64,000 nt of DNA from a virus. The notes under the pieces were generated by a model. The model saw only the letters and a program-made list of their open reading frames with translations. It was not told the origin of the DNA and made no database searches. The stretch is from UHGV virus genome UHGV-0112973. One strand, given 5' to 3'. This document shows, piece after piece, positions 5,406 to 63,973 of the stretch (within the stretch, counting starts at the first letter, position 1; each line of letters opens with the position of its first letter). The translations under genes were made by a program, and so were the position numbers.

Positions 5406-5912
5406 TTGAGTATTTTCAATAAACACGCACACCAGGAACGTCCGTATATCGTCATAGTCGATATTGATGGAACAATATCAGAGGCAACTGAAGACAGACT
5501 GCATTTGCTTCCGCCACTAGGTAAAGGTGCATTAACAAAGGACTGGAACGAGTTTAATCTCGCCTGTGACACCGATACTCCCATCACTCCAGTTATTGAT
5601 ATGGTGCGCCAGTTATTTAACGTTTACACGGTCTGGTTTGTAACCGGGCGCTGTGAGATCGCAAGGGATAAAACACGAGTCTGGCTGCGGAAGTACGTAA
5701 CAAACGGGGCTGAGCCTTTGCTATCTATGCGTCCTGCCACCGATGACAGAAATGACGGCCCAGCAAAGATTGATCTCCTTAAGAAAATTGGTCTAAGTAA
5801 AATCGCGTTCGCGCTGGAAGATAAGATTGAAGTGGCGCGTGTTTTCAGGAGGCACGGCGTGCTTACGTTAATGGTCAGGGAGTATGAAAATGCGCTTCTT
5901 CATCAACAATAA
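5406..5912 (+). CDS. HAD-superfamily phosphatase-like protein
   Basis: 168 aa; N-terminal VIVDIDGT (HAD motif I DxDGT); TTG start after GAGGAG. Confidence 0.45.
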   Translation: MSIFNKHAHQERPYIVIVDIDGTISEATEDRLHLLPPLGKGALTKDWNEFNLACDTDTPITPVIDMVRQLFNVYTVWFVTGRCEIARDKTRVWLRKYVTNGAEPLLSMRPATDDRNDGPAKIDLLKKIGLSKIAFALEDKIEVARVFRRHGVLTLMVREYENALLHQQ

Positions 5913-10145: not shown

Positions 10146-10786
10146 CTACTCTAACGACAGCATACTTACAGCAATTGGTATTTTTTGCAGGCGAGGCTAC
10201 TTGTCATCCTGACGCAAACTATTTATTGGAATTTGAGAGGTTAGCGTCACCCGGTATCGTTCTGGAACTGGCCCAACAGGTGCTGGCCTTAAGACAAAAA
10301 GAGCAACATGAAAGTAATACGTGTAGATTGAACTTTGAGCAGTGGCTGGAACAGCAACGCGGAAAAATCGATGTGGACTGTGGTTGTGTGTCTACTGAAA
10401 CATTCATGCACTGGCTGCGGGTAGCTTACGAGGCTGGCAACTATCCGGATATTCCGGATAGTTCGGTGCCAGGGCCAGGAAAGGGCGTCACCGGTGAACG
10501 TATCCGCATTAAGCCGCATGTTTATCGCGAACTGGTTAACCGTCTCCACGATACAGCGATCAAGTGTGCTGGCACCCAGCAATTACGAGAAAGAATTAGC
10601 CGTGTTTTGGGCGACGTTATTAAGCCAGACCATCATAAACAAGCCGAGAAAAGTGGCCTGGAAAGGTGTCACCTTGAGGCGGCATTAAACATTAACCCGG
10701 GGCATACGCTTGGCATTATTGATGCACTATTGGTTCATAAGATGGCCAGGGCTTTATTGCCGCTGGTAGGGGGCAATGACAACTAG
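10127..10786 (+). CDS. hypothetical protein
   Basis: 219 aa; overlaps end of previous gene; no recognised domain. Confidence 0.35.
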   Translation: MAQKEMTTLTTAYLQQLVFFAGEATCHPDANYLLEFERLASPGIVLELAQQVLALRQKEQHESNTCRLNFEQWLEQQRGKIDVDCGCVSTETFMHWLRVAYEAGNYPDIPDSSVPGPGKGVTGERIRIKPHVYRELVNRLHDTAIKCAGTQQLRERISRVLGDVIKPDHHKQAEKSGLERCHLEAALNINPGHTLGIIDALLVHKMARALLPLVGGNDN

Positions 10787-17200: not shown

Positions 17201-18309
17201 GAACATCGTTAGTTACCCGTGAAGAGATGATCGAGGCAATTGAACAGCACACTGCCTGTATCAGTACCAGGGATATACCTGGCGTTATTGCCAACTACTT
17301 CATGATCACCAAACAACTTTACCGGAGAAAGGACAAACACGCGGTTCACCGCATTCTGCTAACCGATATCCGTGAATACCTGCTCGAACAGGGTCATCTA
17401 AATTACGCAACCGTCGCAGCCGAAGCACGCAAGGAGGCACACAGAATGAAAGCAACTAACGTTAAATCAGAAAAAATTTATGCACCTTCAGTTCAGGAAT
17501 CGGAACTGGTGGTTGTTCAGAATCAGCCGGATGAAATTCCCGTTCTGGAATGGCAGGGAGTACGTGTCGTGACAACCGAAACTCTTGCTAGAGGGTATGG
17601 GGTCGATGAAGCCAATATTCGCAACAATTTGTCTCGCAACCTTGACCGCTTTGAAGAAGGTAAGCATTACTTTCTTCTAACTGGTTTAAAATTAAGAGAA
17701 TTTAAGAACAGAGTAACCGGAAGTTACTCTGTTGGTAAGAACGCCAGAAGCCTTACACTCTGGACAGAGCGCGGCGCTGCACGCATGTCTAAGATCGTGG
17801 ACACAAATGAAGCATGGGCATTCTTTGAAAAACTGGAAGACAGCTACTTCCGGCAAAAAGAACAGCAACCGGTTGCAATCCCCCAAACATTACCAGAAGC
17901 CCTACGCCTGGCTGCCGAACTGGCTGAACAAAAGCAGCTTCTGGAACAGAAAGCCCACCAGCTAAATCAGCAGCTGGTGGCCGCCGCTCCTAAAGTCGAT
18001 TTTGCCGACCGGGTATCAGTAGCTAAAGGGATCCTGATTGGGAATTTTGCAAAGGTTGTTGGACTTAAGCAAAACGCGCTGTTTGCCTGGTTACGGGAGA
18101 ACGGCATCCTGATAGCGTCCGGTGGACGTAAAAATGTGCCGTTCCAGCAGTACATCAATGCGGGGTATTTCACGGTGAAAGAAGTGGTGCTGGATGATGA
18201 AGATGGCTACCAGATACGGTTGACGCCTCAATTAACGGGTAAAGGCCAGCAGTGGTTGACGCGTAAACTGCTCGATGCTGGCTTGTTAAAACCGGTGGCG
18301 GCTGAATAA
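17197..18309 (+). CDS. antirepressor-like protein (Ant/KilA-C family, copy 1)
   Basis: 370 aa; N-terminus and C-terminal about 135 aa closely match the Ant at 61411 and KilA at 62619; different central domain. Confidence 0.65.
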   Translation: MRTSLVTREEMIEAIEQHTACISTRDIPGVIANYFMITKQLYRRKDKHAVHRILLTDIREYLLEQGHLNYATVAAEARKEAHRMKATNVKSEKIYAPSVQESELVVVQNQPDEIPVLEWQGVRVVTTETLARGYGVDEANIRNNLSRNLDRFEEGKHYFLLTGLKLREFKNRVTGSYSVGKNARSLTLWTERGAARMSKIVDTNEAWAFFEKLEDSYFRQKEQQPVAIPQTLPEALRLAAELAEQKQLLEQKAHQLNQQLVAAAPKVDFADRVSVAKGILIGNFAKVVGLKQNALFAWLRENGILIASGGRKNVPFQQYINAGYFTVKEVVLDDEDGYQIRLTPQLTGKGQQWLTRKLLDAGLLKPVAAE

Positions 18310-19894: not shown

Positions 19895-19928
19895 ATAACT
19901 TCGTATAGCATACATTATACGAAGTTAC
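19895..19928. other. loxP: loxP recombination site (ATAACTTCGTATA-GCATACAT-TATACGAAGTTAC)
   Basis: 13-bp inverted arms around the 8-bp GCATACAT spacer; outermost base of the right arm is C instead of canonical T. Confidence 0.9.
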
Positions 19929-20346: not shown

Positions 20347-21378
20347 ATGTCCAATTTACTGACCGTACACCAAAATTTGCCTGCATTACCGGTCGATGCA
20401 ACGAGTGATGAGGTTCGCAAGAACCTGATGGACATGTTCAGGGATCGCCAGGCGTTTTCTGAGCATACCTGGAAAATGCTTCTGTCCGTTTGCCGGTCGT
20501 GGGCGGCATGGTGCAAGTTGAATAACCGGAAATGGTTTCCCGCAGAACCTGAAGATGTTCGCGATTATCTTCTATATCTTCAGGCGCGCGGTCTGGCAGT
20601 AAAAACTATCCAGCAACATTTGGGCCAGCTAAACATGCTTCATCGTCGGTCCGGGCTGCCACGACCAAGTGACAGCAATGCTGTTTCACTGGTTATGCGG
20701 CGGATCCGAAAAGAAAACGTTGATGCCGGTGAACGTGCAAAACAGGCTCTAGCGTTCGAACGCACTGATTTCGACCAGGTTCGTTCACTCATGGGAAATA
20801 GCGATCGCTGCCAGGATATACGTAATCTGGCATTTCTGGGGATTGCTTATAACACCCTGTTACGTATAGCCGAAATTGCCAGGATCAGGGTTAAAGATAT
20901 CTCACGTACTGACGGTGGGAGAATGTTAATCCATATTGGCAGAACGAAAACGCTGGTTAGCACCGCAGGTGTAGAGAAGGCACTTAGCCTGGGGGTAACT
21001 AAACTGGTCGAGCGATGGATTTCCGTCTCTGGTGTAGCTGATGATCCGAATAACTACCTGTTTTGCCGGGTCAGAAAAAATGGTGTTGCCGCGCCATCTG
21101 CCACCAGCCAGCTATCAACTCGCGCCCTGGAAGGGATTTTTGAAGCAACTCATCGATTGATTTACGGCGCTAAGGATGACTCTGGTCAGAGATACCTGGC
21201 CTGGTCTGGACACAGTGCCCGTGTCGGAGCCGCGCGAGATATGGCTCGTGCCGGAGTTTCAATACCGGAGATCATGCAAGCTGGTGGCTGGACCAACGTA
21301 AATATTGTCATGAACTATATCCGTAACCTGGATAGTGAAACAGGGGCAATGGTGCGCCTGCTGGAAGATGGCGATTAG
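20347..21378 (+). CDS. cre: Cre tyrosine recombinase
   Basis: 343 aa MSNLLTVHQNLPALPVDATSDEVRKNLMDMFRDRQAFSEHTWKMLLSVCRSWAAWCKLNNRKWFPAEPEDVRDYLLYLQARGLAVKTIQQHL...; about 420 bp from loxP. Confidence 0.95.
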   Translation: MSNLLTVHQNLPALPVDATSDEVRKNLMDMFRDRQAFSEHTWKMLLSVCRSWAAWCKLNNRKWFPAEPEDVRDYLLYLQARGLAVKTIQQHLGQLNMLHRRSGLPRPSDSNAVSLVMRRIRKENVDAGERAKQALAFERTDFDQVRSLMGNSDRCQDIRNLAFLGIAYNTLLRIAEIARIRVKDISRTDGGRMLIHIGRTKTLVSTAGVEKALSLGVTKLVERWISVSGVADDPNNYLFCRVRKNGVAAPSATSQLSTRALEGIFEATHRLIYGAKDDSGQRYLAWSGHSARVGAARDMARAGVSIPEIMQAGGWTNVNIVMNYIRNLDSETGAMVRLLEDGD

Positions 21379-21987: not shown

Positions 21988-22548
21988 ATGAAAACAATCG
22001 AACAAAAAATTGAACAGTGCCGCAAGTGGCAGAAGGCAGCCAGAGAACGAGCGATCGCTCGGCAACGGGAGAAGTTGGCTGATCCGGTCTGGCGAGAATC
22101 TCAATATCAGAAAATGCGGGATACTATCGACCGCCGTATCGCTAAACAGAAAGAGCGCCCACCAGCCAGCAAAACGCGGAAAAGCGCGGTAAAAATAAAA
22201 TCTCGTGGCTTGAAGGGGAGAACACCAACGGCGGAGGAACGGCGCATCGCCAATGCTCTTGGCACTCTCCCCTGCATTGCCTGCTATATGCATGGAGTAA
22301 TATCTAATGAGGTGTCTCTGCACCATATCGCCGGTCGTACCGCGCCGGGTTGTCATAAAAAGCAATTGCCACTTTGTAGATGGCACCACCAGCATGCAGC
22401 ACCGGCTGAAGTAAGAGCAAAATACCCCTGGCTGGTCCCTGTTCATGCCGATGGTGTGGTTGGAGGCAAGAAAGAATTCACCCTGCTGAACAAGTCAGAG
22501 ATGGAGTTACTGGCTGACGCCTATGAGATGGCAAACATCATGCACTAA
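21988..22548 (+). CDS. ref: Ref (recombination enhancement function, HNH-type endonuclease)
   Basis: 186 aa; Cys/His motif CIACYMHG...HHIAGR...CHKKQLPLCRWHHQ; position after cre. Confidence 0.75.
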   Translation: MKTIEQKIEQCRKWQKAARERAIARQREKLADPVWRESQYQKMRDTIDRRIAKQKERPPASKTRKSAVKIKSRGLKGRTPTAEERRIANALGTLPCIACYMHGVISNEVSLHHIAGRTAPGCHKKQLPLCRWHHQHAAPAEVRAKYPWLVPVHADGVVGGKKEFTLLNKSEMELLADAYEMANIMH

Positions 22549-22737
22549 TAAATATATTATTTTTAATGATAAATGATTGACAACTGACAAGTGACTTCAG
22601 TCAGAATCATCACATGCCCGGTACGGATGGATCCCTTTTCAAATATTCCATGGACGGCACAGTCTGAGTACCGGGCGCTACCTTCAGTTGTATTGCTAAG
22701 CCGCCGCTGGTGGCTTTTCTTTTTTGTAGGGGGCGCT

Positions 22738-23379
22738 ATGGATAAGAAAATATGCGTTGTTTCGATGAGCGTCGGCAAACCGGCGTCAATGACTGCTGCA
22801 TGGATCAATAACGAGCTGATAATGGCTGAGCGGACCAGCTACCCTGAACGCCGCCGCGATATGGAACTCCAGCTGCTGCGCGAATTGCGAGAAAAAGAGG
22901 AAAAGGGTTTTATCGTGCTGGTGGAAGAGGAAAACAGCTTTATTACTGGTCGAGTTGGCCAGCGTGTAAGGTTGCGCGATCCCTTCATGAACGGCAGGCC
23001 GGTACTGATTGAAGCAATGCAGATTTACAAGGAGCTGGAACGCCAGAAAGCGATCAAGTTACCGCGCAAGGAATCCGGCAAATACATCCTCCACCAAAGC
23101 ATCTTCGATTCCGAACACGATAAAAAAGGCGATGAATTTTTCAACATCAACTGGAGCGAAATAACGACAGAGCATGTTCTGACGTTACTATGTTGCTTTG
23201 CGACGGAATACAACAACGTTGCCAGCGCCGACTACATCAGGGCAATGGCTGGAGAAGTTGAAGCCCGCCAGGAACCATCGTTACTAAGTCCACTTATTAA
23301 CATAATTCTGGGTACCCAGACACTGGAACAAAAAAAAGTGCCGAAAGGGGTATTAACAGGCAAGCATAATTATTTCTAA
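22738..23379 (+). CDS. hypothetical protein (position of P1 mat)
   Basis: 213 aa from ATG after AGGGGG; track ORF extends to 22591; no recognised domain. Confidence 0.35.
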   Translation: MDKKICVVSMSVGKPASMTAAWINNELIMAERTSYPERRRDMELQLLRELREKEEKGFIVLVEEENSFITGRVGQRVRLRDPFMNGRPVLIEAMQIYKELERQKAIKLPRKESGKYILHQSIFDSEHDKKGDEFFNINWSEITTEHVLTLLCCFATEYNNVASADYIRAMAGEVEARQEPSLLSPLINIILGTQTLEQKKVPKGVLTGKHNYF

Positions 23380-23577
23380 TAATTTATAGTGGGGACTTTT
23401 GATGGTGTAAAACCCCATGAATTATTATTTTTTAGTTTTTTGATTCTATTTTTTTTGCATTACCCGTCATAAAAATGAGCTTGCTTACATAATAGAAAAT
23501 TATTTTATCAACACTATTACAACAAACGATTATCACTGATAACATGAGTCCTTTGAAAACAAAGGACTCACCATACT

Positions 23578-24186
23578 ATGTCTAATACCTCGGCAAATGA
23601 AATTGTACCGCACTTACCGCTAATTTTCGAAAATGAAGCTAATGGGATTCTTCAGGATCTGGCCTATACTCCATCGCTTATGGGGTTGATGATGTTCCCG
23701 ACAGAAGAGGAGCTGAAAGCAGCGAGAAGCTACATAATTAACGTTTTTGAAGAGTGTTACCGAGCCGGTCATTTGCGCATTATGGGCTTTACTAATGAAG
23801 AAAACTTGTTCGGATACGCCTTAATCTTCGGACATCCATCGGGAAATTTTCCGTTGTACTGTCATAAAATATATGTATATGAGCAATATCGTGGTAATGG
23901 ACTTGGAAGTAATATACTGGCAGAAATACTTGCATTTCCAAATGAGGTCGCTTTGATTTGCCAGTCTGATTTGGTTCCTTTTTATGAATCAGCCGGAATG
24001 CACTTTAAAGGAAATTACACCACTCCATCAGTCGCCAATTTCAAAAAAACTCGCGGCATGTATGAGGGGCTTTGTTTGATGAGCACTGAAAAAAATGCAA
24101 ACTCTAATGGTGTACCTATATTCATGCTGAACGATAACGATATTGATAACATCATACAGGCTATCGCATCATCGGCACCACGATAA
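23578..24186 (+). CDS. GNAT-family N-acetyltransferase
   Basis: 202 aa; acetyl-CoA-binding-like segment YVYEQYRGNGLGSNILAEIL; AT-rich flanks. Confidence 0.55.
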   Translation: MSNTSANEIVPHLPLIFENEANGILQDLAYTPSLMGLMMFPTEEELKAARSYIINVFEECYRAGHLRIMGFTNEENLFGYALIFGHPSGNFPLYCHKIYVYEQYRGNGLGSNILAEILAFPNEVALICQSDLVPFYESAGMHFKGNYTTPSVANFKKTRGMYEGLCLMSTEKNANSNGVPIFMLNDNDIDNIIQAIASSAPR

Positions 24187-24268
24187 TATTAATAATTCAT
24201 CTCGCCGCAGGAACTACAAACCAGTTGATTGTTTGTGAAACGCCCGGTGCAAACCGGGCCAACAAAAC

Positions 24269-24517
24269 TCAATCAGCATTGAGAAGCAATGCATTATCTA
24301 TGATGATCTGCTCCCATTCTTCGAATGCCCGGTCGCGGACGCCCTGGGGAACACTGTTAGTTTTGAAATCGACGACCGTACGCCATTTCCCGTCCGGACG
24401 GTACATGCGCAGAGCTTTACTTCCCCCTTCCCTGCGCACCTCAACGTTATGCTTATCAGCAAACTCTTGTAATGCTCGTAGCGTCCCATGCTTTACTGTG
24501 TAGTATCGCTTTTTCAA
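24269..24517 (-). CDS. lxc: Lxc-like (Bof) C1 co-repressor
   Basis: 82-codon ORF (TTG start) immediately downstream of the ulx-like gene in the darB operon direction. Confidence 0.5.
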   Translation of the reverse strand: MKKRYYTVKHGTLRALQEFADKHNVEVRREGGSKALRMYRPDGKWRTVVDFKTNSVPQGVRDRAFEEWEQIIIDNALLLNAD

Positions 24518-24987: not shown

Positions 24988-27900
24988 TTATGCGTATTGT
25001 TGGATGACGGCCAGAACGTCCGCCACGTTGTGTTTTGTCTCGATAATCCACCAGTTACCCGGGAAATCGCTGTTCTTCGCCTTCGCTGGCAGCCAGCGAG
25101 CGCCGAATTTCGCCTTGATTGCGTCTTTCGCACGGAAAAGAACGCCTTTCATGCCTGAGGCTTCCTGAAGCCCAAATACCTCGCCAGCGGCGAATTTTGG
25201 TGCGTACATCATCTTCAGGTCGGCGGTGGATACGCGATAATTCAGACCAAGAGACTGAGCTATGCTGGTGGCATCACCCTGTATTGATGATAACTCTTCT
25301 TGTTTCTCGTTTCTGGCGGCAATCTCTTCCTCCGTGATGTTGCCAAGGGCCAGGTTTATCCGATCAGCGTCGGCCTGTTTCTCTTCATCGGTGCGCCCGG
25401 CAAGAACCGTGTTAATTCTCTGCAATATCTCCACATGATTCTTGCGCATGCTGAGCAATTCCGGCGTAACCTCGTTAAGATCCACCAGCCCAAGGATGGC
25501 AAGGTCGGAAAACATTGATACCAGGTTGTAGGTCATGCGATAGCTGAGTTGACCATAGGCTGATGGCAACTTCACCGCATCCATTTGATAGGCATCCATA
25601 AATTTAGAGCCGTCGTTTACGACATCCGCTATTGCAGGTGTGATTTTCCCTGTGGTGGCGGCCTCCCTGATTGCTGTTACCCACGATTGAGTCAGCGCGG
25701 CGACTGCATGATTCAGATTGGCTTCCCGTTCTGCTGCGATGCGCGCGCTTGCTGCGTCCATTGCCTGCTTGATCTCGGCTTTATTGCTGTAAATGCCAAT
25801 GGTGCCAAACTGTGCTGTGGTGATCTCATAATCTGACGCCCGGAACTCATTGGTACCGAAAATGGCATTGGTGACTTCAAGTTCAGAATCCCCGTTACGA
25901 GTAGCCCCCTGGCTTGTTTTCTCCGGCATTCTGGCGATCGCATCCGCTATTTTCTCCTGAATTGCTTCAGGGGATAGCGTATCTCCGTATGACGCGATTA
26001 CATCGCCATAATTGGAGCCAAACAGTTCAACCAGGAATGCTTCTGCCGAACGGATCTGGCGGTTATTCCCTTCCGACATCATACCAAGCACCCATTTTGC
26101 AATTGACGACTTCAGCGCGCCGTCACGGCGATCCGGGTAAACCGCATGCTTCAGTGGGTCCGTATAGGTACCAACAAAATCAATGCTATAGCCTGACTCT
26201 GTAGTCTGAACGCCGTATGAGTCAGTGATTTTGATCATGCCGCGCTGCTGGAAACGGTAGAAATCGTCACAGGAAACGATGTCGTTAATCCCGGCGATGG
26301 AGACGCCACCACTGATTTTCTGCATAACAGCATCTTCATCGGGAGTTACATCAACCTGTTTATCCAGCGTCTTCACATCCCAGTTACCAGATTTGGTGCC
26401 TTTGAAGGTGAAGATGATCTCCACGTCTGCGCGCTGGCTGTCGAAGTCCAGCGACTTAATGCGAACGATATCACCGGCACAATCGTAGTATTGGCCTACA
26501 CGCCATGAGCGATCGCCGATAACAAGGAACTCACTCGCATGGTTAACCAGGTCAGGATCAACATCCAGAATGCCTTTATTTAATGCATCCTCCACCAGCG
26601 GGCGCAGGCGTTTGATATCCGTCGCGGCCTTCTGAGTACGGTTCAATAATTTCTCATAGCGGGAGATGGCCTGAGAGATATTAGCCTTGCGCTGAATGGC
26701 GCTTTTCAACGACGCGCGATACTGTGCTAACAACATACGGTCTGTGTGATGGACGCTACCCCAGCGGGCTTTCCAGTCTGCGTTATCAGCTGCTTTGGCC
26801 ATTACCGCCTGTTTGAATTTAGCTACCTCGGCGGTGGTCTTTTCAAGTTCCGCTTTGCTTCGCTCCAATTCAGCGGTAAGTACCTCCACATCCTCACCAG
26901 CTGCGTGCTGCGCCTTGATGTAGTTCTGAAGGTCGATAGTAGCCTGTTCTTTCTGGCGAGCGCGTTTCGCAGCTTTCGCCTTATCCATTTGAACCTGCAT
27001 CATTGCCAGACGTTCGCCGTCATCCTTCGCGGTATACATCTGCATTTCGATCATATCGTTGGCGTCGGCGTTCTCCATTTCTGACTTATCTGAACGGAGG
27101 ATATCGGAGATCCAGCCTGCTTTACGCTTCAGCGTCTTCAGTCGGTATTCATCGAAAGACCCCTTGCCGCAGTAGTAGTGAACGCGAACGCTTGCACGGT
27201 TGGAGCCAACTCGGGCACCGCGACCGTTTCGTTGCGCAATACTGGCTGGAGTCCATGGCAACGTCAGATGATGGATGTCAGTCGTTCCTCGATGCAGGTT
27301 GATACCCACCTCTGCCTTTTTGTTGCAGATGATGATCGGAGTCCGGCCCTCCTGGAAGTCGGCTGCAATCTTTTCCAGACCGCCCAACGACATTTCATTT
27401 TGCTGCGCGATATAGGCGTCATACAGAGCCATTTGCTCGTTGTATTTCGCTATCTGTGCATCTGTTGGTTCATCCGGTAACTCTTTCGGCGGTTTAACCG
27501 CTTTCAGTTTCTTACCGGTTTTACCTGCCTCGGCAACCGTCTGAGCATTCAGTATCCCCACCTTTGAAGGTTCAAGGTTAAGAGCATTGCAGATAATGCG
27601 TTTGAGCTTCTGGTGCTGCGTTTTTTCATCGGTGAAGATGATTTGCTTACCTTCCGGGAAAAACTCCTTCAGCGTGGCAATCAGCTTCGCGTATTTGGGC
27701 GTAACGGGGTGAGTTACGGTCTGTTCGTCAATGCCAAACCTGGCCAGGCGCTTATTCACTTCCTGCTCGAACGCTTCCGGAACCTGCAACTGAATAAACT
27801 CGCCCTTATCTATCAGGGAGTATTGCGATTGCTGCGTGATTGAATCATCACTGTCGTCGTCTTCACTGGTGGCTTGTTTAGGCAAACTGTCCGCCAGCTG

Positions 27901-30900
27901 CTGCACCGCATCGGCGTACTCCGGCAGGAAACGATAGGTGATCCGGCGATAGTACAGGTCCATGTCAGTACATACGCGGTCCATATCCCTGATTATTGAG
28001 AAGATCGGACGGGCTTTCTCGTGCTCAATCACGCCGTCTTCATTGACCGAGGTCGTTACGCCATTGTTGGCTTTGGCCGCCGCTTCCGCCTGCTGACGCA
28101 ATTCTTCATACGCCGCCAGTTGTTCTTCAGTAAGTGGTGCATCCTGCTGGTGTTCGTCCAGCTCCGGGATCTCCACGGTATCCTTAACGTCTTCCGCCGT
28201 TTTAAGCGTTACCCAGCGATGGAATATACCGCGCAGCGCATCAAGGTTTTCAAAGCCCACCAGCGCCATTTTTTCTTCAACTTCACCGCTAATTTTCTGT
28301 ACCGTTTCCAGCCTGGTCTTGCCGAAGAATTTAACGAAGTCATCAGGACCGTAGATCCCCATGTTCTGCCAGTATTCCTTCGGCAGAACATGAGAAAGCA
28401 TGTTGTATGCATCGATCGGGGTGTTAACGACTGGCGTTGCAGTCAGGAGAACCGGGCCGCGCCCACCATTCTTTTTAATCAGGTACGCGTTTTTAATTGC
28501 CATATCTCGCGCCGATTGCGCCACCGCGCTGGTGGGCAGATAGGCCAGTTGTGACGCTTCGCGACCATTTTTATAGCTATTGCGGTAGTTGTGACCTTCG
28601 TCAGCGATCACACTATCGAAGCCCATATCCTCAAAGTACGGATACTTCTCTGCTTTTTCGGTGCCGGTATCTGAATACTCCGACAATACCCGGCGACGCG
28701 CGGCCTCTTTGCGGTGGGAGTCGGAGTCCATTGCGCTGGCTACGCGTCCGGCGGCAACGAAGTCATAAAGCATATCCTGTGCATGCTCATCTACGGTGTC
28801 ATCACGTAGCGGAATGCGGGCGTATTGTTCTTTGGTAAACACGACTGCACGGTAATTTGAGTGCGGGATCGCGTTCATCCGCGCCGTGATAGTGGCTTCA
28901 TCTGCCAGCTTAAGAGCATCGCGCATAACTGGAGTGCCATCAGTACCAAGAACAGGTTTACCGTTCTCATCGAGCACCTGCACCTGGCGAATCTGATCGC
29001 CATCCATCAGCACATCAAGACCGACGAACAGGTAGTTACTGAATGCCTCTTCACTCAGGAATTCTTTTGCTTCGTAATACCAGTTTTCCAGCACTGATTT
29101 AGGCACTACATACGCAGTACGGGTGGAGCGACCGTTCTCATAGTTGAACGCCTCAAGCGCCAGCGCGGTCGTGGTTTTACCCAGCCCGGTGCCGAAGCCC
29201 AGGATGCCGCGCCCATCTTCGGACAGTCGGCGCACCTCGCTATTCTGGTAATCAAATGGCTGGCGCTTACCGCTTAATCCCTTCAACCCAAGCGGATCGC
29301 CAGAGTGTTCATACGGGATATTGCTATTGAACACATCGTTGTATTTGGCAACCAGCTCATCGTAGCGATCGTGCGTCTTGATCCACTTATTGAACTGGTC
29401 CTCAAGCAGTGCCATCTGCTCGCGGTAGCCGTTCGCCGTCGCGCTATCTTTGCCACCGATACGCGCACCATTGAGATACTTTTCCAGCTGTGCCGGGAAC
29501 CCGGTCGCGTTTTCACCTGATTTACGGTCCCACTCGTAGCGAATCTCACCTGTTTCTTTATCCTTGCGCTGGACGACACCGTATCGGTGCCCGACGAACA
29601 GACCATCACCACCGTGATAGGTGTCAGAAACCATTTCGTCGCCTTCCAGCTGCACTGACTGCACATAGCGCAGATCCGGATAACCGTTTTCCTGCAAAAA
29701 TTCCAGAATGACGGAACGGTCGAACCAACGGCTATTGAGCTTAAACCGGATATTCTCTGCTGGCGTCTTGATGCGCTTCTCTTCGATAGCTGCCAGCTGA
29801 TTAAGGACGTTGTTCTTTACTGGACCGTCGGGGAGTGTGGCGAGGAATTCCTGTTTTGGAGCCACTATCTCGTTAATGTCGCCGCTGGTGGCGCGGGCGA
29901 ACGGAACAATCCCGCCATACGGTGAAACCGCAATACCAGGGGTGCTGGCCAATAAATTAAGCAACTCTTCATCACTGGCTGGCAGTTCGCCGGTAAACGC
30001 AAGGCGGAAATCATCGAGCTGGATTGGATCGCGGGTGAGATCGCTATAGAGATAACGCAGGGTGTCCTGATAGCTGGTGGAGTCATAACTTGCGCTGGAA
30101 TCATGCGTAACCAGCTTCCCTGTCAGCTCGTCAGAAATAGTGCCATCCAGCTTAATTGCACCACGGAAAGCAAACCAGGCGCGCGCACCGCTCCCCGACA
30201 ATTTCGCTATCGGACCGCGACCGGGGTTACCAAAACGGTCAATCTCTGCCTGCAAACGGGATACCAGAGAAAGGCGCTGCTGTTCGATTTGTTCAGCACT
30301 ATGCCCGGCGGCCTTCATGTCCTGATATTCAATTAACATCCGGCCAATCATCGCCCCGCGATACAAGCGTTCACGGTATTTTTCAGGCTGGCTGTTAATC
30401 CAGTCCACCAGTTGCACCATATCGTCGCTGATTGATGTGGTGTACTTATCGCGGACATTTGCCATCTGGGTAAATGTCATGCCGAGACGGCCTTCTGTTG
30501 TAGTCAGGTTACGCTGAAGAGCCTCCCAGCTATCCGCGCCATAACTGGCAGCATCGATCTTAAGTTCCTTCCCGGCATCAGCTTCAATCCAGCGACCACC
30601 AGCATATTTTTGCCATACGCCATTAATCAGGCGCATTTCCCCTTCACCAACAACGTCTGCGGTCGGTGACGGTTCAGCCATATCGAGCAAAGACCAGTCG
30701 ATACGGCTTTCGAAACGATGAATCAGCTTCGCTTTAAGAGCCTGGTTATCAATCTGACCGTCGGCACGAACCTCAATACGCCCCTGGAAGCCCTTTTCCT
30801 GGGTGCCATGAACAAACCGGCGGCCGTCCTTTTCAAACCACTTGCCAGAAATAAACGTTGGCCAAAGCACATTTGCCGATTCGAGAGTGCTTTCATCCAC

Positions 30901-31755
30901 CAGGGGGATTTTCTCAGCCATCTCTGCCGGATGTTTGCGCATCAGCACCACATCAACAACTGTACTGGTCCCGTTTGCGTCAAAAGTACCGGTAGGCAAG
31001 CGGTGGGCACCAAGAAATTCAGCTTTCCGTGATAGGCGCAGGCGTAACCGCTTCATGTTTGAACCTGAAACAATGGACGGCGGCACAATCACGCACATGA
31101 ATCCGCCTGGCTTTATCTTGTCCAGCATGCGGAGCATGAAGTAAGAACCCATGTCCGTTTCTTCTGCGTAAGGCTTATCGATGTTGCGTGTGTTATCACG
31201 ACCACCGAACGGAACGTTACCCACAACATGGTCGAATGAATCGTTAGGCGTGCTTACAGCCAGTTGTTCGAACGGAGAAATCTGTACGCTGTCTTCCGGG
31301 TGCAACAGCTGGTTTATACGACCGGAAACACTGCTGATCTCAGTCGCGGTCATCACCGTACCAACCGGTTTTGTCTCATTAAAAACGCCGGTTCCCGCCG
31401 ATGGTTCCAGAGTGTTACCTACGTCCGCGCCGTAGAGCTTCATGATCTCCCAGACACCTTCAGCGATCGGCTTTGGTGTGTAATATTCGGAGACGGACCC
31501 GCCAATGCCGCCTTCACCGGTGTACCCAGCCAGGATCTGGCGCTGTTCATCTGTCAGTGTCGCGCCGTCCACCAGCGAATTAAGCAAATCTATCGCCTTC
31601 TGATTCGCCTCACGGCGCAGTCGGTCATAGCTTTTGCCTTCCACCTTTTCCACGCCGTATTTAATCGGCGCTCGGTGAGATGTTATTGCCCTAATGTATT
31701 TCAATATTTCGCTGACACTTGAACAGCGAAACACCCCCATAGATAGCTTGTTCAT
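24988..31755 (-). CDS. darB: DarB-like antirestriction protein (methyltransferase/helicase)
   Basis: 2255 aa, the length recalled for P1 DarB; helicase motifs IADEGHNY and LLTATPVVN; N-terminal NVPFGG region. Confidence 0.85.
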   Translation of the reverse strand: MNKLSMGVFRCSSVSEILKYIRAITSHRAPIKYGVEKVEGKSYDRLRREANQKAIDLLNSLVDGATLTDEQRQILAGYTGEGGIGGSVSEYYTPKPIAEGVWEIMKLYGADVGNTLEPSAGTGVFNETKPVGTVMTATEISSVSGRINQLLHPEDSVQISPFEQLAVSTPNDSFDHVVGNVPFGGRDNTRNIDKPYAEETDMGSYFMLRMLDKIKPGGFMCVIVPPSIVSGSNMKRLRLRLSRKAEFLGAHRLPTGTFDANGTSTVVDVVLMRKHPAEMAEKIPLVDESTLESANVLWPTFISGKWFEKDGRRFVHGTQEKGFQGRIEVRADGQIDNQALKAKLIHRFESRIDWSLLDMAEPSPTADVVGEGEMRLINGVWQKYAGGRWIEADAGKELKIDAASYGADSWEALQRNLTTTEGRLGMTFTQMANVRDKYTTSISDDMVQLVDWINSQPEKYRERLYRGAMIGRMLIEYQDMKAAGHSAEQIEQQRLSLVSRLQAEIDRFGNPGRGPIAKLSGSGARAWFAFRGAIKLDGTISDELTGKLVTHDSSASYDSTSYQDTLRYLYSDLTRDPIQLDDFRLAFTGELPASDEELLNLLASTPGIAVSPYGGIVPFARATSGDINEIVAPKQEFLATLPDGPVKNNVLNQLAAIEEKRIKTPAENIRFKLNSRWFDRSVILEFLQENGYPDLRYVQSVQLEGDEMVSDTYHGGDGLFVGHRYGVVQRKDKETGEIRYEWDRKSGENATGFPAQLEKYLNGARIGGKDSATANGYREQMALLEDQFNKWIKTHDRYDELVAKYNDVFNSNIPYEHSGDPLGLKGLSGKRQPFDYQNSEVRRLSEDGRGILGFGTGLGKTTTALALEAFNYENGRSTRTAYVVPKSVLENWYYEAKEFLSEEAFSNYLFVGLDVLMDGDQIRQVQVLDENGKPVLGTDGTPVMRDALKLADEATITARMNAIPHSNYRAVVFTKEQYARIPLRDDTVDEHAQDMLYDFVAAGRVASAMDSDSHRKEAARRRVLSEYSDTGTEKAEKYPYFEDMGFDSVIADEGHNYRNSYKNGREASQLAYLPTSAVAQSARDMAIKNAYLIKKNGGRGPVLLTATPVVNTPIDAYNMLSHVLPKEYWQNMGIYGPDDFVKFFGKTRLETVQKISGEVEEKMALVGFENLDALRGIFHRWVTLKTAEDVKDTVEIPELDEHQQDAPLTEEQLAAYEELRQQAEAAAKANNGVTTSVNEDGVIEHEKARPIFSIIRDMDRVCTDMDLYYRRITYRFLPEYADAVQQLADSLPKQATSEDDDSDDSITQQSQYSLIDKGEFIQLQVPEAFEQEVNKRLARFGIDEQTVTHPVTPKYAKLIATLKEFFPEGKQIIFTDEKTQHQKLKRIICNALNLEPSKVGILNAQTVAEAGKTGKKLKAVKPPKELPDEPTDAQIAKYNEQMALYDAYIAQQNEMSLGGLEKIAADFQEGRTPIIICNKKAEVGINLHRGTTDIHHLTLPWTPASIAQRNGRGARVGSNRASVRVHYYCGKGSFDEYRLKTLKRKAGWISDILRSDKSEMENADANDMIEMQMYTAKDDGERLAMMQVQMDKAKAAKRARQKEQATIDLQNYIKAQHAAGEDVEVLTAELERSKAELEKTTAEVAKFKQAVMAKAADNADWKARWGSVHHTDRMLLAQYRASLKSAIQRKANISQAISRYEKLLNRTQKAATDIKRLRPLVEDALNKGILDVDPDLVNHASEFLVIGDRSWRVGQYYDCAGDIVRIKSLDFDSQRADVEIIFTFKGTKSGNWDVKTLDKQVDVTPDEDAVMQKISGGVSIAGINDIVSCDDFYRFQQRGMIKITDSYGVQTTESGYSIDFVGTYTDPLKHAVYPDRRDGALKSSIAKWVLGMMSEGNNRQIRSAEAFLVELFGSNYGDVIASYGDTLSPEAIQEKIADAIARMPEKTSQGATRNGDSELEVTNAIFGTNEFRASDYEITTAQFGTIGIYSNKAEIKQAMDAASARIAAEREANLNHAVAALTQSWVTAIREAATTGKITPAIADVVNDGSKFMDAYQMDAVKLPSAYGQLSYRMTYNLVSMFSDLAILGLVDLNEVTPELLSMRKNHVEILQRINTVLAGRTDEEKQADADRINLALGNITEEEIAARNEKQEELSSIQGDATSIAQSLGLNYRVSTADLKMMYAPKFAAGEVFGLQEASGMKGVLFRAKDAIKAKFGARWLPAKAKNSDFPGNWWIIETKHNVADVLAVIQQYA

Positions 31756-62489: not shown

Positions 62490-62532
62490 TCTGAGCAGAT
62501 CGTCCAACCCGATCTGGATCGAGTCAGAAAAA

Positions 62533-62618: not shown

Positions 62619-63419
62619 ATGCAACAAACATTCAATGCGGATATGAATATATCAAGCCTTCATCAAAATGTCGATCCTTCAACCACTCTGCCCGTTATTT
62701 GTGGTGTTGAAATTACGACCGACCGCGCTGGCCGTTACAACCTTAATGCTCTACACAGAGCGAGCGGACTCGGTGCCCATAAAGCGCCAGCTCAATGGCT
62801 AAGAACGCTGTCAGCTAAACAGCTCATCGAAGAGCTTGAAAAAGAAACTATGCAGAATTGCATAGTTTCGTTCGAAGGCCGTGGCGGCGGCACTTTTGCC
62901 CATGAATTGCTCGCAGTGGAGTACGCTGGTTGGATTTCTCCCGCGTTTCGGCTGAAGGTAAACCAGACATTTATCGACTATCGAGCTGGAAGATTACAAC
63001 CTGCTATTCCGAAGAGCCTCCCAGAAGCTCTCCGTTTGGCTGCCGACCTGGCAGAGCAAAAGCAACGGCTGGAGCAAAAAATGCTGATGGATGCACCTAA
63101 AGTCGAATTCGCCGAACGCGTTGCTACCGCCAGCGGGGTTCTAATCGGCAACTATGCCAAAGTGCTCGGCCTGGGCCAAAACTATCTCTTCACCTGGTTG
63201 CGTGATAACGGAATTCTGATCGCAACCGGTGAACGCAGGAACGTCCCCAAACAAGAATACATATCCCGTGGGTATTTCACCCTTAAAGAAACCGTGATCG
63301 ATACAAGCAATGGAAGCAGGATTTCTTTCACGACTCGTATAACCGGCAAAGGTCAGCAGTGGCTGATGAAGCGATTGCTTGATGCTGGTGTGCTGGTACC
63401 TGTCGCGGCAACGCGCTAA
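62619..63419 (+). CDS. kilA: KilA
   Basis: 266 aa; C-terminal domain shared with Ant; followed by repL-like gene. Confidence 0.8.
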   Translation: MQQTFNADMNISSLHQNVDPSTTLPVICGVEITTDRAGRYNLNALHRASGLGAHKAPAQWLRTLSAKQLIEELEKETMQNCIVSFEGRGGGTFAHELLAVEYAGWISPAFRLKVNQTFIDYRAGRLQPAIPKSLPEALRLAADLAEQKQRLEQKMLMDAPKVEFAERVATASGVLIGNYAKVLGLGQNYLFTWLRDNGILIATGERRNVPKQEYISRGYFTLKETVIDTSNGSRISFTTRITGKGQQWLMKRLLDAGVLVPVAATR

Positions 63420-63448: not shown

Positions 63449-63973
63449 ATGCTGGCTAAAGTCACTTTCCTGAGCTGTATAACGATGAGCGATTTTACTT
63501 TTTCTGGCTATGAATTGGCCTGCTTTGTAACACACTCCGGTCTATCCCGTAGCGCCGGGCATATCCTGTCGCAATGTGCAAATCTAGCGGCAACAACCAG
63601 TGAATACTTCATTCACAAGCCTCACCGCCTGATCGCGGCAGAAACTGGTTATAGCCAATCAACCGTCGTTCGTGCATTCCGTGAAGCTGTAAACAAAGGA
63701 ATTCTGTCTGTAGAGATTGTTATCGGCGATCACCGTGAACGTCGCGCTAACCTGTACCGGTTTACGCCATCCTTTTTGGCCTTCGCACAACAAGCCAAAA
63801 ATGCGCTGATTGAAAGCAAATTAAAGATCTCTTCAGCGGCAACCAAGGTTAAAGCTGTTCTCGCTAAGACATTGGCTTTATTTAATTTTTTATCCACACC
63901 CCCATGTCAAAATGATACCCCCTCCCCCTGTCAGGATGACGTGGCAGGTGATGCTGCCAACTTACTGATTTAG
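63449..63973 (+). CDS. repL: RepL-like lytic replication initiator (possibly shorter than P1 RepL)
   Basis: 174-aa ORF directly after kilA; recalled P1 RepL is longer, so a frameshift or variant C-terminus is possible. Confidence 0.45.
   Translation: MLAKVTFLSCITMSDFTFSGYELACFVTHSGLSRSAGHILSQCANLAATTSEYFIHKPHRLIAAETGYSQSTVVRAFREAVNKGILSVEIVIGDHRERRANLYRFTPSFLAFAQQAKNALIESKLKISSAATKVKAVLAKTLALFNFLSTPPCQNDTPSPCQDDVAGDAANLLI

Follow-up and report, generated by a model that had tools for sequence, protein, structure and literature searches.

A single-gene GNAT acetyltransferase cassette in the res-mod slot of a P1-like phage-plasmid, tentatively read as lysogen-protecting cargo

Phage P1 carries the res and mod genes of EcoP1I between mat and lxc; what stands in their place in the P1-like phage-plasmid UHGV-0112973 (UHGV virus genome), and what might it do for the lysogen? 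We analysed a 64-kb stretch of this element (64,000 nucleotides, hereafter the window), in which the space between mat and lxc holds a single gene for a 202-residue GNAT-family N-acetyltransferase behind an AT-rich leader. We tentatively read it as lysogen-protecting single-gene cargo, most likely a one-protein defence against phages or mobile elements that would acetylate a cationic amine and whose translation would be throttled, and we give this reading slightly less than an even chance. Reading rightwards, the window carries cre (20347-21378), c8, ref (21988-22548), mat and the GNAT open reading frame (ORF), the last two on the plus strand, followed by lxc, ulx and darB (24988-31755), with lxc and darB on the minus strand. 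Since P1 (NC_005856) has res and mod at exactly this place, between mat and lxc, an earlier sequence-only reading had rightly assigned the gene to the res-mod position. The slot and its flanks are made up as follows.

22738-23379, plus strand: mat (maturation control), bordering the slot on the left, named from the RefSeq annotation of an identical locus (L001).
23380-24268, no strand: replaceable cargo cassette bounded by the stop codons of mat and lxc and filling the P1 res-mod (RD-1) hotspot, recognised by junction alignments and GC content.
23380-23577, plus strand: AT-rich 5' spacer and leader, 28% GC, recognised by composition.
23578-24186, plus strand: gene for the GNAT-family N-acetyltransferase, 202 residues, isoelectric point (pI) 4.95.
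24242-24259, no strand: GC-rich hairpin GCCCGG-tgcaaa-CCGGGC, a probable terminator in the space where the GNAT and lxc genes converge, read from the sequence.
24269-24517, minus strand: lxc (modulator of C1), bordering the slot on the right, with ulx and darB after it; the homology of all slot variants resumes at the lxc stop codon.

In junction alignments with RCS47 and with elements carrying other inserts, similarity was lost exactly at the mat stop codon and regained exactly at the lxc stop codon, which delimits a cassette of 889 bp; the empty site of RCS47 has just 39 bp from mat to lxc. The AT-rich spacer of about 200 bp noticed earlier measures 198 bp with 28.3% GC, and the GNAT gene has 40.4% and the whole cassette 38.1%, against 48.0% and 51.8% in the flanks. 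Just 2% of 889-bp segments across the 64 kb are equally AT-rich. A GC-rich hairpin particular to the variant stands immediately beyond the lxc stop codon in each slot variant, the empty RCS47 site included; the one at 24242-24259 lacks a T-run and was not called by a consensus terminator scan. The sharp boundaries together with the variant-specific hairpins indicate that the segment is an exchangeable cassette in a recombination hotspot; homologous recombination between conserved flanking sequences probably brought it in. By megablast, the match to P1 stops at window position 23325, which leaves the final ~55 nt of mat divergent from P1, and the mat 3' end (last 55-90 nt; window 23300-23379; loci L019-L022, L002 and L003) varies among lineages with different slot cargo. 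These two observations place recombination breakpoints inside the mat 3' end, the C-terminus of Mat co-varying with the cargo.

The res-mod region is known as 'RD-1' or 'variable region 1', a low-GC recombination hotspot of P1-like elements (PMC6906374, PMC9603915). We surveyed its contents with a query running from mat to ulx, which matched 703 plasmid records. The GNAT cassette, counted at a coverage of at least 80%, was present in 21 of them, and the gene was absent from P1, P7, RCS47, SJ46 and all other INPHARED phage records; it is not the conserved P1 gene that it might have proved to be. Other records had an empty slot (span 1504-1505 bp), genes for RelA/SpoT, SIR2, PIN/DUF4935 or DUF2971 proteins, or larger inserts that split the match. 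Most of the sampled occupants matched defence or defence-candidate models of PADLOC:

SJ46 RelA/SpoT protein: slot occupant, PADLOC match PDC-S33 (7e-87).
SIR2 protein: slot occupant, PADLOC match PDC-S25 plus ThsA-type SIR2.
PIN/DUF4935 protein: slot occupant, PADLOC match PDC-S34.
DUF2971 protein: slot occupant, PADLOC match PDC-S31.

The RelA/SpoT slot protein of SJ46 is identical to PDB entry 7ZTB, which is CapRel-SJ46. CapRel-SJ46 is a fused toxin-antitoxin defence protein with a known anti-phage function and trigger, and senses phage proteins directly. In Salmonella phage SJ46 it is likewise encoded by one gene in exactly this mat-lxc slot, which reads in the direction of mat, is delimited by the stop codons of mat and lxc and has a terminator hairpin of its own behind it; the protein, a RelA/SpoT pyrophosphokinase, is unrelated to the GNAT protein. 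The type III EcoP1I res-mod genes of P1 share the locus and its low-GC 'recent acquisition' character (PMC6906374), but they are two genes of ~6 kb on the opposite strand, target DNA, and have no sequence or mechanistic kinship with the GNAT gene. Type III restriction-modification and CapRel have both been reported among the defence systems of P1-like elements (survey preprint, 10.1101/2025.09.12.675607). The GNAT cassette is thus located in a defence hotspot, where it is interchangeable with type III restriction-modification, CapRel, SIR2, PIN/DUF4935 and DUF2971 genes. By analogy, it might be an acetylation-based immune counterpart, in a sister element, of CapRel-SJ46 at the same locus, which we regard as possible rather than probable.

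Is the gene intact, and what does it encode? The protein passed the gathering scores of two Pfam models, PF13673 (27.3 bits; cut-off 23.6) and PF00583 (25.6; cut-off 20.7), and fell slightly under that of PF13508 (25.3; cut-off 27), which bears out its first description as an orphan GNAT gene. Three conserved elements stand out in the family.

23857-23868, plus strand: invariant Y94-C95-H96-K97 on strand beta4, from an alignment of 19 family members.
23890-23910, plus strand: motif A, R105-G-N-G-L-G-S111, the R/Q-x-x-G-x-G/A acetyl-CoA pyrophosphate-binding loop after beta4.
23980-23985, plus strand: invariant F135-Y136 within 'LVPFYESAG', from the family and phmmer alignments.

In motif A, R105, G106, G108, G110 and S111 are invariant in the 19 members. 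In phmmer alignments to serotonin N-acetyltransferase (AANAT; 1CJW, 1B6B), H96 aligned with the catalytic His122, and Y136 aligned with the general-acid Tyr168. The AlphaFold2 model was confident (pLDDT 88), with three helices (residues 4-62), a GNAT core and a conserved tail with a helix (170-199), and the modelled core has the alpha/beta fold of GNAT proteins. Pfam models, motif A and predicted fold, which are three of the four features that define the superfamily (the fourth is acyl transfer from acetyl-CoA to an amine), are therefore all present. Pairwise ratios of non-synonymous to synonymous substitution (dN/dS) among eight alleles and homologues were 0.09-0.41, and 0.1-0.26 for all informative pairs; the gene is under purifying selection and, with motif A and the catalytic His and Tyr intact, is not a pseudogene. 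These results indicate that the cassette encodes what is, as judged from its residues, an intact acetyl-CoA-dependent N-acetyltransferase.

The nearest solved relatives by profile are AANAT (E 5e-5) and SSAT2 and SSAT1 (3e-4 to 1e-3), matches over ~75 residues that are too weak to place the protein among these enzymes. The group of AANAT, SSAT1/2 and NATA1 (E 5e-5 to 1e-3) is acidic, as is the GNAT family, in which all 19 aligned members have a pI of 4.3-5.9. The AANAT/SSAT kinship and the acidic pI suggest an amine-type acceptor. Because of its acidic surface and its catalytic residues resembling those of amine acetyltransferases, the enzyme would be expected to acetylate not tRNA or DNA but a primary amine of a cationic molecule, which could be a basic protein or a metabolite resembling a polyamine. 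PDB entry 9S30 ('GNAT family N-acetyltransferase') is 100% identical to the protein over all 202 residues and has a 30-residue tag in addition. This entry was absent from a structure library of entries released up to 2026-04-08, and in the full-text literature we found no paper on the GNAT protein or on 9S30. The gene carries generic RefSeq annotation only, and its PHROG match, phrog_10454, is of unknown function.

A GNAT protein on a mobile element raises the question of a toxin-antitoxin pair. The cassette protein has the predicted GNAT fold in common with the toxins of GNAT and ribbon-helix-helix (RHH) pairs (TacAT, AtaRT, ItaRT, KacAT), which are likewise often on mobile elements. Unlike these, it is acidic and has neither an adjacent antitoxin gene nor a conserved neighbour. 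Its gene is flanked by mat and lxc; of the other ORFs with 20 or more residues that overlap the cassette, all encode 21-50 residues save a 92-residue plus-strand ORF that is mostly antisense to lxc; and no neighbour gene was conserved across 15 homologous contexts. In a Serratia relative (L004), upstream genes of 95 and 149 residues were considered as partners and rejected, being without Pfam matches and missing from the other loci; the 95-residue gene call overlaps the conserved leader, which is non-coding elsewhere. The sequence-only reading had likewise seen no RHH-like partner and had not taken the gene for an obvious GNAT toxin-antitoxin pair, and with both tested features of such pairs missing we conclude that the cassette is not one. 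The protein showed no preferential similarity in sequence or structure to the GNAT-RHH toxins, and neither specific kinship with TacT, AtaT, ItaT or KacT nor a basic tRNA-binding surface was found. We therefore consider it quite improbable that the protein is a solo self-inhibited toxin, acetylating aminoacyl-tRNA like TacT, AtaT and ItaT, whose N- or C-terminal segment would act as a built-in antitoxin released by phage. Such a toxin would fit the locus, which is shared with the fused toxin-antitoxin CapRel-SJ46, as well as the family-specific N-terminal three-helix segment (residues 1-62) and the conserved C-terminal tail (170-202), and the tight translational masking in P1 alleles described below hints at toxicity.

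Where else is the gene found? A word-indexed search returned 23 clusters of relatives; 57 representatives among 1.84 billion were found at E <= 1e-10, and 8 loci in 185,579 species genomes. The exact allele is present in 19 PLSDB plasmids and in 12 out of 5,426 complete E. coli genomes, in each case on a P1-like plasmid, and an allele with 85% identity occupies the same slot in E. albertii and in other E. coli plasmids. In the P1-like plasmid pHYEC7-mcr1 (NZ_KX518745.1; L037 3279-6446), a colistin-resistance unit, ISApl1-mcr-1-pap2, has inserted into the gene and breaks it after about codon 96, which shows that the gene is dispensable for plasmid maintenance. The relatives stand in varied surroundings.

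Serratia: phage-plasmid.
Klebsiella: IncFII plasmids, adjoining repA, with McrBC nearby.
Raoultella: lambdoid prophage, inserted on the opposite strand; a related contig has HicA in the vicinity.
Enterobacter: island with NACHT ATPases.
Pseudomonas: element with HipBA.
Serratia: adjoining an IS3 element.
Further relative: beside an EcoRII restriction-modification system and a resolvase.
Further relative: plasmid region with SSB and a ParB-like gene, the GNAT gene being on the opposite strand.
Further relative: adjoining type IV secretion system (T4SS) genes.

This is a small family, confined to mobile elements (phage-plasmids, conjugative plasmids, a prophage and genomic islands) and always without a partner. 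Homologues adjoin EcoRII, NACHT, McrBC and HipBA genes, so that the family has defence neighbours, with the caveat of a non-defence gene pair in the slot itself to which we return below. The interchangeability of the cassette with defence genes and the island contexts of the homologues are the reasons for proposing a defence role. The Serratia contigs of 81-114 kb (L004-L006, L023) carry a P7/P1 C1-type repressor and ParM-like StbA partition genes along with the GNAT homologue, and seem to represent another lineage of phage-plasmids with the GNAT cargo in common.

The same contexts bear on the idea that the enzyme acts against defence, acetylating and disabling a host immune protein or immune signalling molecule and so guarding the phage-plasmid. 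There is a precedent in AcrVA5, a GNAT anti-CRISPR that disables a host immune protein by acetylation. The GNAT gene adjoins the ulx-darB anti-restriction operon and reads in the same direction as the lytic gene mat, from which no evident terminator separates it; one homologue lies near SSB and a ParB-like gene and another adjoins T4SS genes. However, most of the sampled slot alternatives match defence or candidate models and none is a known anti-defence gene, the homologue in the SSB region is on the opposite strand, and the chromosomal copies are in islands with NACHT or restriction-modification genes. In addition, tblastn of 50,697 phage records detected no relative, virulent phages, in which anti-defence genes are common, being included. 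An anti-defence function hence seems improbable to us, if less so than a solo toxin.

Lysogenic conversion by detoxification is a better contender, although we still consider it unlikely: the enzyme would inactivate a cationic small molecule, such as an antibiotic of the aminoglycoside, streptothricin or microcin type or a toxic amine or polyamine, to the direct benefit of the host. The amine-type acceptor suggested above would be of this kind. No resistance-family model of NCBIfam was matched at its cut-off, and the scores were far off (PRK10314, 13.4 bits against 171; ArsN1a, 12.4 against 170; RimI, 12.5 against 86.4), ArsN1a being the best of the resistance models. The gene in the P1 slot is not tied to insertion sequence (IS) elements, integrons or transposons and is exchanged like the defence genes; where resistance did arrive on an IS element, as ISApl1-mcr-1 in pHYEC7, the GNAT gene was destroyed by it. 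The rarity of the family, with its 8 loci in species genomes, also speaks against detoxification.

How might the gene be expressed? Two features precede and overlap its start.

23545-23570, plus strand: perfect 11-bp stem, TGAGTCCTTTG-AAAA-CAAAGGACTCA.
23544-23585, plus strand: 13-codon upstream ORF MSPLKTKDSPYYV*, spanning the hairpin, its stop codon overlapping the GNAT start (ATGTCTAA), read from the sequence.

The hairpin had been noticed as a stem of 10 bp, which is present at 23546-23555/23560-23569; the perfect stem is in fact one base pair longer. Its 3' arm holds a probable Shine-Dalgarno (SD) sequence, AAGGA (23562-23566), 11 nt 5' of the ATG. The 91-nt RNA from 23520 to 23610 folds at -20 kcal/mol (z = -3.9), and freeing the SD and start codon of the GNAT gene costs 15.7 kcal/mol, the third highest value of 45 ORFs in the window (median 7.9). 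In the window allele the hairpin would thus throttle translation by sequestering the SD, as expected if an excess of the product is harmful. The initiation regions of two other ORFs of at least 150 residues are more structured, those of 58733-59299 (minus strand) and 63449-63973 (plus strand), with opening costs of 19.0 and 17.6 kcal/mol; either the first ATG of these ORFs is not the real start, or their translation is masked or coupled. With loops of 3-8 nt, perfect stems of 11 bp or more occur six times in the window, compared with 0.17 expected from composition-preserving shuffles. One of the six (19897-19926) is the loxP core upstream of cre, which suggests that such stems tend to be functional in this genome; the four others, with loops of 3-5 nt, lie at 10439-10463, 17707-17733, 62465-62490 and 62844-62869.

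The 11-bp stem is identical in the NCCP15648 allele (97% identical), and two other alleles of the P1 slot mask the SD by different pairing, at 10.5 and 11.1 kcal/mol. Sequestration as a trait of the whole family was rejected, because most non-P1 homologues open at 3.6-6.6 kcal/mol against the window median; it is a property of the P1-borne alleles. The hairpin is also unlikely to be a terminator for mat, since a T-run is absent after it on both strands and the terminator scan made no call. As for the upstream ORF, it is without an SD of its own, and neither the alleles of E. albertii and NADC1036 nor the other homologues have its ATG; it may be fortuitous.

A hairpin that masks the SD recalls the com-mom operon of phage Mu, in which the expression of a toxic product is held down in this way. 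One could imagine, by analogy only, a Mom-like enzyme of GNAT fold that replaces the lost EcoP1I methylase and modifies bases of its own DNA to evade restriction, and the predicted fold, the hairpin and the position of the P1 DNA-modification genes are what recommends it. The protein, however, is acidic and shows no nucleic-acid-binding features, the Pfam and PHROG matches listed for it are all to GNAT or acetyltransferase models, apart from a single PHROG of unknown function, and the hairpin is not conserved in the family. We consider this by far the least probable of the explanations weighed here.

About 110 nt of the 5' leader are conserved with the gene in enterobacterial homologues (L004, L007, L011, L013, L023, L024) that stand in unrelated contexts, and a leader that travels with its gene supports an autonomous cassette. 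The conserved core of this leader is GCTG(A/C)TAACATCAG, and its counterpart in the window, TTATCACTGATAACAT (23530-23547), contains the palindrome TTATCA-C-TGATAA. The core GCTGNTAACATCAG was compared, by eye and by search, with known operators and promoters and fitted neither the spacing of a LexA box nor a Fur box, a sigma-54 promoter or a C1 operator; it may be an operator or an RNA element. The only sigma-70-like match upstream of the GNAT gene on the plus strand is at 23399-23428. The consensus of the C1 operator, ATTGCTCTAATAAATTT, has 13 matches with up to three mismatches in the window (146-62549; for example at 5912, 19752, 35536, 60862 and 62533), against 0.22 expected, and all 13 fall outside the cassette. 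At the same threshold there was no match upstream of ref and mat, where P1 has Oref and Omat. Nor does the cassette have a -22 box of late promoters, the one of LPmat being at 22589-22597. Expression of the GNAT gene would accordingly be independent of the C1 and late-promoter circuits.

The vicinity of the slot varies too. Between ref and mat there is a second variable slot, which holds a gene for a hypothetical protein of 184 residues in E. albertii pESA138_1 (L002 5254-12629) and a gene for a DUF4145 protein in pNADC1036IncYphage (L003 4318-5040). In E. albertii pESA138_1, the place of darB 3' of ulx is taken by other genes, among them DsbA and a fimbrial operon of the F18 type.

How well, then, does a lysogen-protecting defence cargo account for these results? 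Several observations weigh against it. The slot also holds a pair consisting of an EAL-domain protein, resembling a c-di-GMP phosphodiesterase, and an AraC-type regulator, both in phage vB_EcoM-Ro157c2YLVW (L022 1486-3060) and in a plasmid (L035 1037-2429), where the pair is broken by IS1; the mat-lxc hotspot is therefore not purely defensive. No family of PADLOC-DB v2 matched the GNAT protein at E <= 1. Strong masking of the SD is found only in the P1-borne alleles, the other homologues opening at 3.6-9.3 kcal/mol, mostly under the median. The gene is co-oriented with mat and the terminator scan found no clear terminator between the two, so that a promoter of its own in the AT-rich spacer and read-through from mat are both possible; the gene could be read through from the lytic mat promoters instead of being expressed in the lysogen. 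Finally, the homologues near SSB and ParB-like or T4SS genes fit anti-defence or plasmid-fitness roles equally well.

Defence cargo nevertheless remains the reading that we tentatively prefer. It would be a single-gene cassette in the mat-lxc hotspot, where P1 has EcoP1I res-mod and SJ46 has CapRel, and its product would protect the lysogen, most likely as a one-protein defence against other phages or mobile elements. A bolder version, which we think unlikely but worth stating, is that the protein founds a family of acetyl-CoA-using one-protein anti-phage systems, in which the N-terminal helices and C-terminal tail would sense a phage component and the core would acetylate a cationic target and thereby block or abort infection. 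The hotspot locus, the GNAT superfamily and the 9S30 structure are already known; what is new is a GNAT protein at this site that matches no known defence or resistance family. As a structure of the identical protein has been deposited, others are evidently at work on it already, and this novelty may be short-lived.

P1-like elements are frequent in E. coli and Salmonella from clinical and livestock sources, where they also carry resistance genes. If the detoxifying explanation were true, transducing phage-plasmids would be moving a resistance determinant that has so far gone unrecognised. The GNAT gene, with its clear enzymatic fold, its very small family confined to mobile elements and its lack of a partner gene, is a good, cheap and well-defined candidate for experiments. 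The mat-lxc slot behaves like the defence hotspots of P2 and P4, and CapRel-SJ46 has already come from it; the GNAT protein now offers a well-defined candidate for a new mechanism of immunity or counter-immunity that works through acetylation.

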